64,000 nt of DNA from Podarcis gaigeae (taxonomy: Eukaryota). Below, one piece after another: positions 5,955-63,159 of the stretch. The notes beneath the pieces were generated by a model, which saw nothing but the letters and a program-made list of their open reading frames with translations, was not told the DNA's origin and did no database searches. The stretch lies in assembly GCA_964106915.2 (NCBI GenBank), contig OZ066920.1. One strand, given 5' to 3'. The translations under genes were made by a program, and so were the position numbers. The first letter of the stretch is position 1. Every line of letters starts with the position of its first letter.

Positions 5955-6234
5955 AAAAAACACAAATTAAAATTGCTTCCAGTAGCACCTTAAAGACCAA
6001 CTAAGTTAGTTCTTGGTATGAGCTTTCGTGTGCATGCACACTTCTTCAGATACACTGAAACAGAAGTTTCCAGACCCTTCTATATAGTGAGAAGGTGGGG
6101 AGGGGTATTACTCAGAAGGGTGGTGGGAATGGGTGATTGGCAGATAGCTGTGATGAGCCTGTTGACGACTTAACGACTGCAATAGGTCTTACAGGAAAAA
6201 GCAATGGGTGAGAAGGTGACAAAGCCATTTTTCA
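5955..6234 (-). mobile_element. Penelope-like element (PLE) pseudo-LTR, young, truncated
   Basis: About 243 nt are nearly identical (about 3 differences by eye) to the reverse complement of ~36033-36276. Contains a hammerhead motif and ends in a short inverted piece TGACAAAGCCATTTTTCA. Confidence 0.85.
6016..6053 (-). ncRNA. Minimal type I hammerhead ribozyme motif (PLE-associated)
   Basis: The - strand reads GUAU-CUGAAGA-A-GUGUG-CAUG-CACAC-GAAA-GC-UC-AUAC: conserved core, 5-bp stem II, 4-bp stem I and palindromic AGCU stem III. Confidence 0.8.
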
Positions 6235-9320: not shown

Positions 9321-10575
9321 ATACAAGAGGGGTGCAGCAGATGAATTTATGTATGTATGTATGCATGCATGTATGTATGTATGTATAACTGTTATAAAGT
9401 TTTATAATTAGGAACAGTAAAGAATAATATAAACAATAATTTAAAATAAACAACATTAGTAAATAAGCACAGACAGTACATTCTGTATAGTTAGCATAAA
9501 AAGGAGTCACATCAAACCTGTAAAGAATTAAAACTGCTAACACAAATACCCTTTATTCATTTTGCAGGGGAAGTGAGCTGTTCAGTCAACAGACAGAAGC
9601 TTATGGAGCTCCGTGAGTTTCTCCTTATTCTATTAACCACAACATTATAAAGGCTGTGGGAGGCAATCATTACCATATTCATAAGCAATAAAGTTGTCCT
9701 AGACTGACAGAAATTTGTCTTTACTCTTTCGACTTCCAGAAGATCTCAATTTATACGTTAATTTTTGTAGTAGGGCTGCTTCCCATACCTTTAGATACCA
9801 GTAAAAAATAGCTGTCCCAACAGCTGATGTTTAATGAAAAGATGGGCTCTCATAACTTCAGGTAACTCAGTCCCAAGCTGCTTAGGGTATTCAATTCAAT
9901 AGTGAGGCTTCTCTGAAACTTAACTTTGATGCTAGAAGCTCTCAAGATAAATCTTGACAGTTGAAGGGCTTGGCCTCAAGGCAGGCCAGTTTTCAAATGG
10001 AAATACTAAATTTAGCAATCCATAAGCACTTGGCATTAAAGAAGACAAAGAGCCAACAGTGATTGGTTCATTTAGATTGCCAGTCTTGTCTGGCAGAATT
10101 TATTTTGCACATATCAGCCATAATGCACTTTGTCATTGATTTGAGAAATGAATTGCCCTGCATGAAGCTATCCAGTTTTTCTGAAGTTCTTTTTCTTTTT
10201 TTAAGGCTGCAAGAAAGCTATACAGTATAAGATATATTTGCCAGTGGCAATTTCATTCTGGTACAATGAAGCAGGTCCCTCCTAACAACTTGCACATCTT
10301 TGCCAAGGCCATTGAATTCACCAATCACTTGTATGGATAAGCTTTAATAAAAATGGCCAAGAGTTTTCCCCTATTTTTCTAGCTCTAATCTTGCAGCAGT
10401 AGCATTATGGCATCAGCTGTCCAGACATAATAGATTTGGTGTGAACCTTGCTAGAGAAAGCAAAGGCCATTGACCTTTGAAAATATTTGTTGATTTTGGA
10501 AATAGCAAGGTGCTCATGCTGGTCACTTTTAAAGGAGTATCTGAGCACTTATGTGTTAAAGACCAACCTTTAAAG

Positions 10576-12904: not shown

Positions 12905-13615
12905 TTATTTATTGCATCCATATACCACCTTTTTTCTCCAAGTTCAAGCTGGTGTACATGGTTCTCTCCCTCCTCAAGTTATCCGCACAACAACCCTGTG
13001 AGGTAGTTTAGGCTTAGAGGCAGTGACTAGCCCAAGGTCACCCAGTGAACTTCATGGCTGAGCGGGGATTTGAACCCTGGTCTCCCAAGTCAGAGACATC
13101 ACCTTGCTAACAAAGGTCCGTATAGTTAAAGCTATGGTTTTCCCAGTAGTGATGTATGGAAGTGAGAGCTGGACCATAAAGAAGGCTGATCATCGAAGAA
13201 TTGATGCTTTTGAATTATGGTGCTGGAGGAGACTCTTGAGAGTCCCATGGACTGCAAGAAGATCAAACGTATCCATTCTTAAGGAAATCAGCCCTGAGTG
13301 CTCACTGGAAGGACAGATCGTGAAGCTGAGGCTCCAATCCTTTGGCCACCTCATGAGAAGAGAAGACTCCCTGGAAAAGACCCTGATGTTGGGAAAGATG
13401 GAGGGCACAAGGAGAAGGGGACGACAGAGGACGAGATGGTTGGACAGTGTTCTTGAAGCTACCAGCATGAGTTTCACTAAACGGCGGGAGGCAGTGGAAG
13501 ACAGAAGTGCCTGGCGTGCTCTGGGCCATGGGCTCACAAAGAGTCGGTCACGACTAAATGACTAAACAACAACAACAACTCCCAAGTCCTAGTCCATCCA
13601 CTATGCCATACTGCT
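12905..13615 (-). mobile_element. MIR/CORE-type SINE interrupted by Bov-B
   Basis: CACAACAACCCTGTGAGGTAG...CCCAAGGTCACCCAG...GGGGATTTGAACCCTGGTCTCCCAAGTC, which resumes as CTAGTCC...CCACTATGCCA after the Bov-B insert. Confidence 0.8.
13092..13578 (+). mobile_element. Bov-B (RTE) LINE, 5'-truncated
   Basis: ORF 13104-13565 is the Bov-B C-terminus (KAMVFPVVMYGSESWTIKKA...IDAFELWCWRRLLRVPWTARRSN...GRQRTRWLD). (CAA)n tail and 10-bp TSD CTCCCAAGTC at 13082-13091 and 13579-13588. Confidence 0.97.
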
Positions 13616-14736: not shown

Positions 14737-14909
14737 GGGGATGGGCCGTGGCTCAGTGGTAGCGCATCTGCTTTGCATGCAGAAGGTGCCAGGTTCAATC
14801 CCTGGCTTGGGAGAGAATCCTGCCTGAAACCCTATAGAGCCAGTGTAGACAATACTAAGCTAGATAGGCCAATGATCTCACTTGGTATAAGGCAGCTTCC
14901 TATGTTCCT
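14737..14909 (+). mobile_element. tRNA-derived SINE, Squam3-like
   Basis: A box GTGGCTCAGTGG, B box GGTTCAATCCC, and body ending GGTATAAGGCAGCTTCCTATGTTCCT. Confidence 0.85.
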
Positions 14910-18199: not shown

Positions 18200-19490
18200 C
18201 TCGAGGCACGGTGCAATCTAGATCTCCATTGACTTCACGTCACTCGGGGACGCAGCACTGCCCGGCTGGGATCGCCCCCGCTCTATTTAATCACCTAAAT
18301 GTACAGTATAAAGAGAATAATGCCTAAAAGCACGTGACCCTGGATTATCCCCAGGTCACCACGACGCCTCCGACGTCTCGCCCCACTGACCCACTAAATG
18401 CCGCCGCTCTTGTCTGCCAGGCTGAGGACCTGGCAATCCCTTCGGTGTGCGTGTGTGTGCGTGTACCTGCCTCGCTCTCGTCAGACGGGCTCCATTCGCC
18501 CACCGCCCTCCCACAGCAACAGCAGCCGTCTCTGGCAGGCGTCGGGCATTGTGAACGTTGACACGACTGAAAGTTGAGGAGAGGGTCAGCGCTCCTCCTC
18601 CTCCGCGCACGTCTGAACGCGGCGACTCGCGTTATCGAAGGCGACACGGTGCAGCGTGAGGGGGCCGTTGAGTGGAGAGGGAAACGAAAGCAGGCAGGAC
18701 ACCGGCGAGAGCGAGCGAGCGAGAGAGCAGGGGCTGGCTAAACTGCGGGCCAGGGAATCGGACAGAATCCTCTCAGGGGGGCCAGAAAGGTGCCTGCAGC
18801 CTCGGCTGGAATGCCTCCTCCCTCGCCATTTGGCCGCCGCCAGCAGCGCCTGTGGTGTTGAGCCTCGCCGAGCTGCTGGGCTCATGCGCATTGCCGGCGA
18901 TGCTCGCGCGCTGCCCTCTCCGGCGCCACTTCTGCTCCTCCTCTCGCTGCTGCTGTTTCTCTCTTTCTCTCTCCTCCTCGCCTGTGTGAGGGACTCCCTG
19001 AACTAGAAGCTGCTCGCTCTGGGGCTGCCTCTTTCTCCCTCAGCCCTGCGCCTCCCTTGCCACGGGAAGCCTTTTTTGTGTTTGTTCTTTGCGACGTATT
19101 GCTTCCCCCCTCCCTCCCTCCATTGCGCTTTCCCACGCGCACCACCTCCCCGCCCGCGCTCCCCATTCTTCTCTTCTCTTCTCAGCCAAGCTGAGGCGAG
19201 GGAAAGTGGGGCGCTGTGAGCTCGACGCTGCTGCCAGGACCGGCTCGTTTGGACTCGGCGCCTCAGCCGGCTGCCTTTCGGAGCGTGGGGTCCTCACTCA
19301 GCCTTAGAGCTGCAGTGCGCGAAGCCGCCGGCGGGGGCGCGGCACCTGGAAGGATCAGAAAAAGCTCCCCAGCTCCAAAGAGAGGGAAGACTCTGCCGCC
19401 ACTGCCCGGGGGACCTGCCTCTCTGGTAAGTGGAGAAAAAAAAGGGTCGCAGCCTTGATTGTGTGATGCGGGAGAAACTGCAACGCTGAA
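18200..19490. promoter_or_regulatory. CpG-island promoter of an unidentified gene
   Basis: Abrupt GC- and CpG-rich, TE-free segment in a CpG-depleted background. CRE-like CACGTCA 18236-18242, E-box CACGTGAC 18331-18338, YY1-like CGCCATTT 18824-18831, NRF1-like GCTCATGCGCA 18880-18890. Confidence 0.9.
18900..19425 (+). other. Probable non-coding first exon (5' UTR); start approximate
   Basis: Strong donor CTG|GTAAGT at 19425/19426 at the 3' edge of the island. No ATG seen on + between ~18903 and 19425. Confidence 0.65.
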
Positions 19491-21096
19491 CTCTTTGTGA
19501 AAAGCCGAAAGTGTAGGGGAGAGAGGAGGTGGTGCTGGTGCCTAGCAGTGTGGACAATGCACTCTGCAGATGCTCAGAGGCACTGCTTTTTTTCCCCTTA
19601 CGATGGTTTGGCAGACGTGACTCTGTCGGTGAATATAGGGACCCAGGAATGGATCTCTGCTGAAATTAAAGCCCTAAAACAGGTGGAAGGGGAGATAATG
19701 TCAACTTTCAAGGGTGGGCTGAGCTCCTAAATGGAGGGTGGAAGGGATAAAGAGCAGTACTCTGAGAGGCAGGAGGAGAGCACAAATAGCCTGGGAATAA
19801 CAGACTGATAAAAGATCCACAGTGTACTTCATTCCTAAGGAATCTCACGGATTTGCCATTTCTGCTGCGTGATAATGTTTCTAAACCAGTGTTTAGGGGA
19901 CTGCAGCTTTTAGGCTGTGATTCAAAGAGCAGGTGCAGCCTTATCCTAGTTATACTTTTTGAGAAGCCTCTCCCACGATATTAAGCGGCATTTGCGGTCC
20001 CAAGTCAGCTTGCCTAGGACTGCAGCAGCATTGCTTGGACTGAAGAAAGTTCCATGGAAATAACTGCGACAGCTTGCAAGTTAGAAGTGTTTTAGGATTG
20101 TGGTGCTGGGTAATCGACATCAGCTAGCGTTTGTGGTAGCAGCAGGCTGTGTGTGACTATGTGTAGTGGTTTTATGTTCCATCTCAGCTCGCTGGGTGGT
20201 CTAGGGCAAATCTCAGTTTAAATTAAAGTGAAGGAAGGGATAAATGAGATAAGAATTGTAAACATACTTGTGGCTGAGAGGCACTTTGGAATGTGGAATA
20301 ATAATATTGCAGTGAGCAGGGCAGCTGTAGTCAAGGGGAGAGAAACAGGCTGTAAAGCTATTTTCATTTACCAGGAATTCAACTCAGGGAGGCTTACTTT
20401 TTACTAGGCATGTACAGGATTCCACTGGATGAGAGGCATGCATGGCACAATATCTACAGAAACTAGCTGACCAACCTCAGATCGCTTGGTCTCATAGTCT
20501 CTGTTTTTGTTTAGGTGCCAAAAATTAGCAGCAAAATCCTAAAATCAGATTGCATCCTTTAAGCGTTGCAAGTTTGCATTCTTACTTGGAAGTAGCAACA
20601 TGAGAGGTCTAGCAGTAGTGGTTATGCATTGGGGTGCCAGCTGTTTGATAGCAGTTTTTGTCTGTGATCTCATGCAATGCAATCAGCTTCAATGGAACTA
20701 TCTCTGAGTATACAAGCAGATACAAGCGATACAAGCAGCTGGGTTCTATAGTGACATTTAAACTGGGAAGTTGGGATGGGGCGGAGACTTCATTAGTAAG
20801 GACGAAAATCCATACTGAAGGGAGAAAGGGAGCATGTGATGAGAATAAGTGGTTGTACATAGCCAGCCTGTGCAATTTACTCTAGCACTGTGGGATTATT
20901 CACTTCCAGATTATCTGATCATAGATCATGTGGCACCTAATGGATTGCTGCCAAGTCTGAATAACCAGTTGCAAAGGAGCTCTCCTTGTTCGGGTGTTTT
21001 CTATACCAGTCTCTTCCAGTTTACATTTTTGTTAACTAATCCCAAGTGTGCTCAGGTTTTTGGGATGGTGGAGAAATTTGATTCAGTTTGCATTCA

Positions 21097-35269: not shown

Positions 35270-35850
35270 GGGTTATTATTATTATTTATTAGACTTGCTA
35301 GTTGCTTGGTCATGCAGAGGTCTCCAAGCAACTTACAACATACTTAAAAACTGAAAAGGAAACACAGATACCTTGTAATATTAGCATTGTAATACAGAAA
35401 ATTCATAAAAGTATACACTGTAAATCAACCTGCCTCCAATGACAGCATTAGGGAGTTTTGGCACCATACTGTCTGCAAAATTAATTGTCTCAGTCCATCA
35501 AAAGCTTGACGCGGGAGAGGGGGAGAAATAGGCTTTTACCTGGTGCCAGAAAGATGTCAGTGAAGGTGCCAGAGGACTTCAGTGCAAAAACATTCCATAG
35601 ATGAGGAGCCACAACTAAAGAGTCCCCCTCCAAGCTTCCCTCAAAGAAGGGACCTGGAGAAGGGCCTTAGACTCACCAAACTCTTTATGGCTCAGAACCC
35701 CAATATCTTCCGAACACCACTCCCAGTATGAACCAACTTGACTCTTAGTTCTTATACCGGGAGTGGTGTTCAGCAGATATTGGGGTTCTGAGCCATAAAG
35801 AGTTTTGGTGAGTCAAAGCCAGCACTTTGAATTGGGCTTGAAAGCATTTG
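35270..35850 (-). mobile_element. Old L2 fragment containing a secondary inverted duplication
   Basis: TTATT tail, CATTCCATAGATGAGGAGCCACAACTAA and CAAAGCCAGCACTTTGAATTGGGC are L2 antisense motifs. Confidence 0.65.
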
Positions 35851-35870
35851 GGATGTCTTATTTAGATAGT

Positions 35871-36293
35871 TCCAGTTACAGATAGGTAGCCGTGTTGGTC
35901 TGCCATAGTCAAAACAAATTTTTTTTCCCTTCCAGTAGCACCTTAAAGACCAACTAAATTAGTTCTTGGTATGAGTTAGTTCTGAACAAAGACCTTGGAT
36001 TCTTAGCTCATTATACATGACAAAGCAATTTTTCACCTTCTCACCCCTTGCTTTTTCCTGTAAGACCTATTGCAGTCGTTAGAGTCGTCAACAGGCTCAT
36101 CACAGCTATCTGCCCATCACCCATTCCCACCACCCTTCTGAGTAATACCCCTCCCCACCTTCTCACTATATAGAAGGGTCTGGAAACTTCTGTTTCAGTG
36201 TATCTGAAGAAGTGTGCATGCACACGAAAGCTCATACCAAGAACTAACTTAGTTGGTCTTTAAGGTGCTACTGGAAGGGGAAAAAAATTGTTT
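35871..36293 (+). mobile_element. Penelope-like element: ORF 3' end + pseudo-LTR with an inverted 5' pLTR piece
   Basis: 35982-36020 encodes LNKDLGFLAHYT*, resembling a PLE GIY-YIG C-terminus. Inverted arms at ~35911-35975 and 36231-36294. Flanking direct repeat TTATTTAGATAGT at 35858-35870 and 36294-36306. Confidence 0.88.
36200..36237 (+). ncRNA. Minimal type I hammerhead ribozyme motif (PLE-associated)
   Basis: GTAT CTGAAGA A GTGTG CATG CACAC GAAA GC TC ATAC. Identical to the 6016-6053 motif. Confidence 0.8.
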
Positions 36294-36305
36294 TTATTTA
36301 GATAG

Positions 36306-37028
36306 TGTCACCAGAACGGAGTTCTAATGCTGTATCTGAGGTGGGGGAGCCTATACCCGATGGACTTAGAAGAAAACTGTGTGCTGTAATTGACCACTCT
36401 CATTCCTAACACTAAACCATCCTGTGATCCTCAGATGAAGGGCAGTTCCATTTGCCCTTCCCCGACAGGCAGCTTTGTAAGCAGGCCCATAGCTGCTCTT
36501 GCGTATTTTAGGCCAGTTCATTCCCCGCTGCCAAATTGACCAATGGTGTCAGGGCCTTATGGGCGTTCCCCTGGGTGCGGGTCAACTGCCCAATGAGCGG
36601 CAAGCTGGTGACGGCTCGATTGGTGGATAGGCATTGGGTAAACTGAGAACTTGAGTGGAGGGGAGGTTGTAGCCTTCGCATTCCCCTCCATGGGTAAGGG
36701 TATCCTGTTGAAAGGATCCACGAGGAGTGGCTCCTGTCCCAGATAGGGGCCAGGGCCATTCCACCTCTCTGATAGGAACCACTTGGGGGATGCCCCAATT
36801 TGACATAGGTCATAGGGCATTCCCCGTCAGATGGGTTCACCCTTAGAAACACTGCCAGTAGACGGGCTGGAATGAAATATGCAGTGGCTTATCCTATGGC
36901 CTATGGCCAAAGCCTACATATCTTTAACCAACAAAGTTGTGGCCTTATTTGATCCCATAAACCCAGCGTACTGTGTACTGTCTAGTTATGTAATCCTCAA
37001 GGAACGGGATGGTCATGGGACCTTGACA
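36306..37028 (+). mobile_element. Probable solo LTR (Gypsy-like)
   Basis: TGTCA...TGACA termini, locally GC-rich with CpGs, and CCAACAAAGTTGTGGCC resembling an AATAAAGTTGTGGCC polyA region ~90 nt before the end. No TSD visible. Confidence 0.45.
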
Positions 37029-38221
37029 TGCAATATTGTATAACCAAAAATATGGATACTCTCTGGAAAAGCCCAGAATGCATTAATGTGACAGTATGGG
37101 GCTGTCCTGATTCCGATGAAATATTAGAACTTTACAATCAGCTTTAACCTGGGCCAGAGTTGAAAGCAGGACTCATCCCTCACCCCAGATGCTGAGCTAA
37201 GTACTAGAACCTCCAGGAGGGTAGTCTATTTGTAGCCCTTTTCACATGGAAGGCTGAGCCTGTTCCATCTACACTATTTGGAACCATTTCAAGTGGGTTT
37301 ATTTTAAAATTTGATTTAATTTTGCAGAGTTGTTCATGTTTTATTGCAGTGCATAGCAAATGTAAGTGGAAGAGAAATGTAATTTTCATATGGGACTGAA
37401 GATAACACTCCAATCTGTCTAGAGTACTATATTTCATCAATACAGAAGGTGCATTAATTGCAAGTTTTATGAACTTGTGCTAATGCAAGCTAGGGAGTTT
37501 TTGTTTTCTAAAAACATGGAGGGCACTATAAAATTCCATTGATTTCTAAAGGAAGGCTACACTTGCCCTTAAATATTTTCTATTGAAATCACTAGGACTT
37601 TAAAGGTGCTTAGCTTTTGGATGATTATTTAAAAAAAAAACACCTTGTGGGAGAAAAAAACTTCACTGATGGAGTCTCAGGATGGAATGTGGGGTGATAC
37701 AACTTACATTTAAATGAGACTCCATTAAGTGCTGCGGCTCTTCTACATTCCATCTTGATCAGATGCAGACTCCTTGGCTCCTAGAGAACTTGAACGCTTA
37801 CCCACTATTGTGTTATATCTTGGTTGACCTAATAAAGGTATTGCCTTGATTTGGATTTTGAAAAAAAATGACTTACTGTTTCTCCCCTTCTTCTTTCCCA
37901 CTCCCACTTTCCCCATTTCTACTAATTCACGTGCCAAGGTTTGTAAGAACCTCCCACTCTCTTGCCAGGAAGAAACATTTTTCAGTATTATAGATCAATT
38001 TCAACATCATAACAACTTACAGAGACTGCTCTGTGATTATTTATATAATTGCTTTTTTACTTTCTCTGGAGGTCAACCTGGGGGTCTGTTATATAGACAT
38101 TTACAATTTATGGAGGCTCCTATTCTGAGCAATTAAATGCAGCAACAAAATTACATGTGGCTTTTATCGAACCTATCTTATGATTTAATATTCCTTCATG
38201 TGGTGTGTTAACTTACACTAA

Positions 38222-62994: not shown

Positions 62995-63159
62995 AAAAAA
63001 TATATTAAAAATTGTCATCTAAGTTTGTTCTTGCTATAAGCATGCACATGAAAAGCTTATACCAAGAACAAACTTAGTTGGTCTCTAAGGTGCTACTGGA
63101 CAATTTTTTTATATGTTTCGACTGTGTCAGACCAACACGGCTACCTACCCGAGTCTAGA
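62995..63159 (+). mobile_element. Penelope-like pLTR remnant with inverted arm (second subfamily)
   Basis: GCTTATACCAAGAACAAACTTAGTTGGTCTCTAAGGTGCTACTGG...CAGACCAACACGGCTACC, with an inverted arm at 63019-63041. 15-bp TSD ACAAATGCATTATAT at 62980-62994 and 63160-63174. Confidence 0.82.

Follow-up and report, generated by a model that had tools for sequence, protein, structure and literature searches.

The minimal hammerhead motif at 36200–36237 (+) is very probably the pLTR hammerhead of a recently amplified Penelope-like element (PLE), carried as a passenger within a 424-bp stub whose likely location is a 5' intron of PAG1; it is predicted not to cut there. All positions are those of the window, i.e. 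the whole stretch of 64,000 nucleotides of Podarcis gaigeae that was analysed (contig OZ066920.1, assembly GCA_964106915.2). The motif and the insertion that carries it consist of the following parts.

36200–36237 (+), minimal type I hammerhead motif, with C36233 and A36234 on either side of the predicted cut.
35870–36293, whole PLE insertion of 424 bp with inverted arm, junction and sense body; delimited by the target-site duplication and by the empty site in organism A.
35858–35869 (+), left copy of the 12-bp target-site duplication, the last bases of which may agree with the tail of the element as well.
36294–36305 (+), right copy of the 12-bp target-site duplication.
35870–35975 (−), inverted, 5'-truncated pLTR piece with the optional tail, without the hammerhead core.
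35981–36293 (+), sense 3' PLE fragment with ORF end, pLTR and hammerhead; no tail at this end.
35982–36020 (+), last 12 codons and stop of the RT-GIY-YIG ORF.

The full core of PLE minimal hammerheads (C3–A9, G12–A15.1, U16.1, H17) is present at 36200–36237, with C3–A9 at 36204–36210, G12–A15.1 at 36226–36229 and C17 at 36233. Stem I, as read from the sequence, comprises 4 bp (36200–36203 with 36234–36237); stem II comprises 5 bp (36212–36216 with 36221–36225) and a CAUG loop; A36211 is the extra unpaired base between 9 and 10.1, and G36212 and C36225 form the G10.1–C11.1 pair. In place of helix III stands AGCU (36229–36232), a palindromic 15.2–16.2 that gives the monomer no helix III. Stem II and its loop together (36212–36225) form a perfect 14-nt palindrome. 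The hammerhead lies in the pLTR, 185 nt after the ORF stop, in the window copy and in the long copy L165 alike. The hammerhead search proposed in the initial annotation gave a divided answer: a generic minimal-hammerhead descriptor was positive, while each of 40 first-order Markov resamples of the window gave 0 matches, and Rfam covariance models gave no match on the motif, neither at the gathering score nor with E values up to 10 admitted, which is expected because the Rfam hammerhead models require a helix III that the motif lacks. The 29-mer of the motif had 0 matches in 100 shuffles; the predicted folding of a 61-nt stretch is no better than that of shuffles (z 0.13). Reading and descriptor search thus uphold what the initial annotation had recognized, an intact catalytic core on the + strand with stem III reduced to AGCU; its assignment to the PLE-type minimal hammerheads also stands, as every sequence property tested agreed, and the cut after C36233 is accepted as the predicted position.

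The insertion combines a pLTR, an inverted 5'-truncated copy, a one-sided optional tail and a target-site duplication; homology to family copies extends from 35981 to about 36290 on the + strand and over 35870–35975 on the − strand. Over 299 bp the sense fragment matches L165 at 98% identity. The site is empty in the related organism A, where a single contig passes straight from 35857 to 36294; the contigs of organism E are too broken to tell. The insertion is a 5'-truncated, recent PLE copy; given the 98% identity and the empty site, the intact core therefore reflects youth, not conservation. The inverted piece, which had been overlooked, is antisense to 36231–36295 and thereby extends over the cut site as well as stem I's 3' strand; its portion at 35911–35975 is complementary to those positions at 94%. 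Directly upstream of the insertion, at 35666–35818, lies a hairpin-like inverted repeat with 52-nt arms (94%), perhaps a MITE, which is also present in organism A and so is older than the insertion.

Two other pieces of the same family were found in the window, the hammerhead of the first having likewise escaped the initial annotation.

5957–6223 (−), second copy of the PLE family, with an identical hammerhead at 6016–6053 (−); upstream of the CpG island.
63040–63147 (+), more diverged (85%) 3' piece of the family, without intact hammerhead.

Other features of the window are a tRNA-like Rfam match at 14748–14806 (+; 37 bits, acceptor stem missing), likely representing the head of a tRNA-derived SINE, and a 163-aa open frame at 13074–13565 (+), which presumably resembles the C-terminus of an RTE/BovB LINE ORF.

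The motif is not special to this locus but one of more than 11,000 identical copies: across the 1.51-Gb genome, 11,151 exact matches to its 34-mer were counted (5575 forward, 5576 reverse), against 0 for the reversed control. All but one of 244 hammerhead places belong to one young family with single changes only, the remaining place to another family, and the window copy has the same core as the family majority. A second hammerhead family, unrelated to the first, was seen at L152:264 (+), with an inverted partner, and at L200:421 (+); it has a 6-bp stem II, CGUC on the cleavage side, an ATG at the junction of core and stem II as in Anolis Poseidon, and inverted pairs.

With the C-terminal 85 residues as query, 3146 candidates were obtained, 150 of which were scored, all at 98–100% identity; 8 long copies with long open frames (503–706 aa) were chosen among these 150. 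All 8 share the same C-terminus and a C-X4-C-X2-C linker between RT and EN, and 6 carry a hammerhead of the exact type soon after the stop. L165 (706 aa open) encodes RT and, at the C-terminus, GIY-YIG in a single ORF, as in EN+ PLEs (RVT_1 PF00078, E 9e-11; GIY-YIG PF01541, E 3e-5; both over the cut-off), of which the window copy keeps the last 12 codons. No same-strand hammerhead was found upstream of the ORF in any of the 8 long copies, all of which appear 5'-truncated, nor was a full-length unit with both pLTRs found among them; a solved-structure comparison for the parent ORF gave no match. A CX2-5CxxC linker occurs in Neptune and Nematis and is lacking in Penelope/Poseidon, according to the accessible part of PMC8557442. 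From this motif the parent element is likely of the Neptune clade, Nematis sharing the linker.

The placement in PAG1 draws on one further feature of the window and on exons beyond its end.

18251–19500 (+), CpG island; a + strand splice-donor consensus lies at 19426–19431.

Four exons matching PF15347 (PAG) were found on the + strand at window-equivalent 100,653–109,483, spanning profile positions 1–428, which places the PAG1 coding exons 64–73 kb downstream of the motif and on its strand. Between the island at 18.3–19.5 kb and 128.7 kb no further CpG island was found. The island is likely the PAG1 promoter with a non-coding first exon, a link to the coding exons that we infer from the sequence. 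Among the sequencing runs listed for the putative island exon, none is on record as RNA, which bears on this link in neither direction. As the PAG1 exons lie on the + strand and the island carries a + donor, the motif very likely lies in sense orientation in a 5' non-coding intron of PAG1. The statement in the initial annotation that the motif shares the strand of the gene starting at the CpG island agrees with the PAG1 exons on + and with the + donor at the end of the island. A fatty-acid-binding-protein-like exon (L134:2279–2422, −) and a ZNF704-like exon (L130:8168–8271, +) flank PAG1; Pfam returned 0 families for these two short exons, which we take to be FABP5 upstream and ZNF704 downstream, an arrangement presumably as on human chromosome 8. 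By eye, a possible − strand donor was noticed at the island's left edge (18465–18470); the promoter may act in both directions.

Cleavage of the window copy in a PAG1 transcript is unlikely, because it has no sense partner closer than 47 kb and because the cut site is predicted to be paired with the inverted arm upstream. The predicted duplex of arm and body comprises 65 bp at −98.1 kcal/mol; with the arm the probability of stem I is 0.0 and that of the pairs over the cut site 0.999, even for an RNA ending at 36250, and without the arm stem I still stays below 0.01 in the insertion body, all values referring to equilibrium secondary structure, which ignores tertiary contacts, proteins and co-transcriptional kinetics. 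A stem I probability of at least 0.1 in its own context was obtained for 1 of 30 family hits. The nearest sense copies are found 47 kb downstream of the motif (204 kb scanned); these two copies, at L122:9031–L123:742 (window-equivalent 83031–84742), form a tandem duplication of 859 bp (99.4% identity) within the region that is likely the same PAG1 intron, and could be an assembly duplication. They were considered as dimer partners and rejected: they are a tandem duplication, and stem I is predicted to be unformed in both. Since stem II and its loop are palindromic, two motifs are predicted to pair there (−30.6 kcal/mol for two 38-mers) and not as an active double hammerhead (−11.1 kcal/mol; two monomers −13.6 kcal/mol). 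This stem II dimer, predicted to be inactive, would confound a tandem-dimer cleavage assay.

RNA reads were mapped to 35300–37100 from organism A, which lacks the insertion, and the element reads stem from other copies (88–89% run on into unlike sequence). Family RNA is present in both runs; the unique flanks of the insertion have almost no depth. A pile of RNA ends at the cut site was found in neither of the two organism A runs (6–12% of each read), standard libraries being prone to miss such ends. In the available text of PMC4209133, minimal PLE hammerheads show no cleavage as monomers and low cleavage as dimers. The Anolis Poseidon hammerhead, according to the portion of PMC11167929 at hand, cuts only with the element's protein; insertion needs no cleavage, uncut RNA is the main substrate, and RNA-seq shows no ends at the cut. 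The proposal of the initial annotation that the nascent intron carries a potential self-cleavage site is therefore not borne out in any meaningful sense, the cut site being buried in the predicted duplex with no nearby sense partner; the absence of the insertion from a relative and the published behaviour of monomers weaken it further.

The 5' ends of the family copies point to the templates from which they were made, and the pLTR contains two promoter-like elements.

36167–36172 (+), TATA-like box TATATA of the pLTR, 30 nt before A36197; putative promoter element.
36195–36199 (+), initiator-like TCAGT; the main 5' end of family copies maps from here to 36204.

Genome-wide, 36200–36226 is kept at 10,017 places, of which 3,403 extend six bases further 5', to 36194; about two-thirds of the copies begin just 5' of stem I, and part of this drop could be subfamily variation. 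Loss around the cut amounts to about 0.5–1.1% per base (72–164 of about 14,500). Among 30 copies not chosen by their 5' end, 14 start at 36197–36204, 8 further upstream and 8 inside the motif; loose ends cluster at 36198–36200 in DNA and RNA runs. As most copies start just 5' of stem I, 30 nt after the TATA box, uncut RNA is likely the usual template, which matches the Anolis in vitro work as far as PMC11167929 is accessible. The TATA/initiator pair, the inverted 5' arm, the one-sided tail and the target-site duplication belong to published PLE anatomy (PMC8557442 and PMC3846280, both available in part).

The element would be transcribed from the TATA/initiator promoter in its own pLTR, which we infer to place the hammerhead at the very 5' end of the RNA. 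Reverse transcription would begin about 100–140 nt downstream of that end and would mostly reach it on uncut RNA, leaving thousands of short stubs that start at stem I. In a + strand host transcript the inverted arm would be made first and would then pair with 36231–36295, so that neither stem I nor the AGCU on which stem III depends would be available, a stem that the monomer would be unable to close in any case.

Two findings count against this account: the isolated 38-mer does fold stems I and II (pair probabilities 0.64–0.73 and 0.97–0.98, respectively), and copies starting at the cut site are in excess, so that some RNA may be cut by the ribozyme in vivo. Among places that keep the 26 bases following the cut, 164 lack C17 and 14,466 have it. 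Places without the base just upstream number 123 for a start at 36232, 72 at 36233, 164 at 36234 (the cut), 78 at 36235 and 157 at 36239, of which 30, 70, 96, 71 and 36, respectively, were examined. With point mutants removed, the estimated truncations are 96 (78–112) at 36234, compared with 57 (35–81) at 36232, 42 (33–51) at 36233, 37 (28–47) at 36235 and 70 (44–97) at 36239. At least 3 nt of antisense microhomology was found in 21 of 56 examined copies truncated at the cut, in most cases owing to the complementarity of the two stem I strands, and the true junction of these 21 is ambiguous. Without microhomology junctions, 60 (44–77) are left at 36234 vs 37 at 36232, 36 at 36233, 37 at 36235 and 48 at 36239; clean cases joined to flank number 17 (8–30) at the cut vs 6 at 36233, 8 at 36235, 8 at 36232 and 4 at 36239. 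Starts at the cut are thus 1.6–2.6 times as frequent as starts at adjoining bases and concern less than 1% of copies. As evidence of cleavage this footprint was rejected, the excess being small and confounded: the interval estimated for the cut is not separate from the ones for 36232 and 36239. A junction recurs in which the inverted arm extends as far as the hammerhead's 5' tip and is fused to the sense copy via stem I microhomology, with the core deleted from the sense arm (L039, L045, L269, L272, L278, L279, L282, L286 and others).

An unlikely reading, to be kept in mind at most, adds to the mostly uncut templates from the pLTR promoter just 5' of stem I a small class of copies that start exactly at A36234 and derive from RNA cut by the hammerhead. 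If true, the insertion junctions would document in the genome that a PLE hammerhead cuts RNA in an animal; intronic sense copies that lack a shielding arm could then likewise be cut while the element is active. The literature searched, which leaves out most subscription papers, yielded no study that compares genomic 5' ends with the cut of a PLE hammerhead.

For the insertion itself, other roles were weighed. It might matter only as a 65-bp double-stranded hairpin or as a cryptic pLTR promoter, not as a ribozyme, serving as an editing substrate, a small-RNA source or the origin of a short internal transcript in the intron; the strongly stable arm duplex (predicted −98 kcal/mol), the intact TATA/Inr-like pair and the presence of an antisense arm within 1.5 kb in 14 of 30 family hits (some loci overlap) are consistent with this, but such structures are common to thousands of copies, and we regard it as improbable. 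Somewhat less credible still is cutting of the PAG1 pre-mRNA by the window copy at a low rate, helped by the element's protein or by AGCU pairing in trans with other hammerhead RNAs. The core is intact, identical to the family majority and sense to PAG1, protein-assisted cleavage has been published for a related PLE (PMC11167929, in its accessible part), and family RNA occurs in both RNA runs; on the other side, the 65-nt arm lies over the cut site, two 38-mers are predicted to pair via the stem II palindrome instead of as an active double hammerhead, neither run has a pile of ends at the cut (a weak argument, from another species and standard libraries), and the window copy lacks the 3' tail, where the Anolis protein starts reverse transcription according to the same source.

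That the hammerhead was domesticated to regulate PAG1, through splicing or the amount of transcript, along the lines of the conserved intronic hammerheads of RECK or DTNB, is hardly to be believed. Its intronic position, sense strand and intact core would suit such a role, but the orthologous site is empty in the close relative organism A, by which this reading is largely refuted; youth, seen in the 98% identity with long copies, leads one to expect an intact core; genome-wide, the identical copies number more than 11,000 and show no strand excess; and a stable helix III or loop contacts are absent. The reading as a passenger hammerhead of a young PLE stub is thus preferred. For PAG1 the insertion is probably of no consequence, since it is a recent copy among thousands of others and is predicted to be shielded. 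The family, with more than 11,000 near-identical copies, is a convenient test bed for the in vivo role of PLE hammerheads.

The motif agrees with the minimal PLE hammerheads of PMC4209133, as far as the accessible text describes them, in its type I topology, intact core, extra base between 9 and 10.1, G10.1–C11.1 pair, palindromic 15.2–16.2 without loop 3, 4-bp helix I, pLTR location, thousands of solo truncated copies and pairs on opposite strands; reptiles are mentioned there. It differs in its helix II (5 bp with a palindromic loop, vs 7–8 bp in the S. mansoni families) and in the great homogeneity of the family, which most families in that source do not share. With Poseidon_Ac (PAc) of Anolis carolinensis, in the part of PMC11167929 available, it shares a lizard-type PLE, a pLTR hammerhead, two 3' ends a tail apart and uncut RNA as main template; unlike PAc, the parent has a CX2-5CxxC linker, absent in Penelope/Poseidon, and stem II does not start with the ATG of the ORF. 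The PLEs of the Neptune clade (PMC8557442, in part) likewise have RT, a CX2-5CxxC linker and, at the C-terminus, GIY-YIG, and show 5' truncation, an inverted 5' copy and a one-sided tail. The RECK and DTNB hammerheads of amniotes (PMC6155905, partial text) are also of type I and lie inside introns, but they are few, canonical and conserved across amniotes, whereas the window copy is of the minimal type and one of very many, and organism A lacks it at the orthologous site. Non-LTR retrozymes (PMC7229834; bioRxiv 10.64898/2026.07.22.740005; both in part) resemble the stub as type I, PLE-related, non-coding sequences; they are head-to-tail tandem repeats with mostly canonical ribozymes, whereas the window copy is a solo stub that keeps the end of a PLE ORF; of 30 family hits examined, 2 had a partner on the same strand at a distance of up to 1.5 kb.
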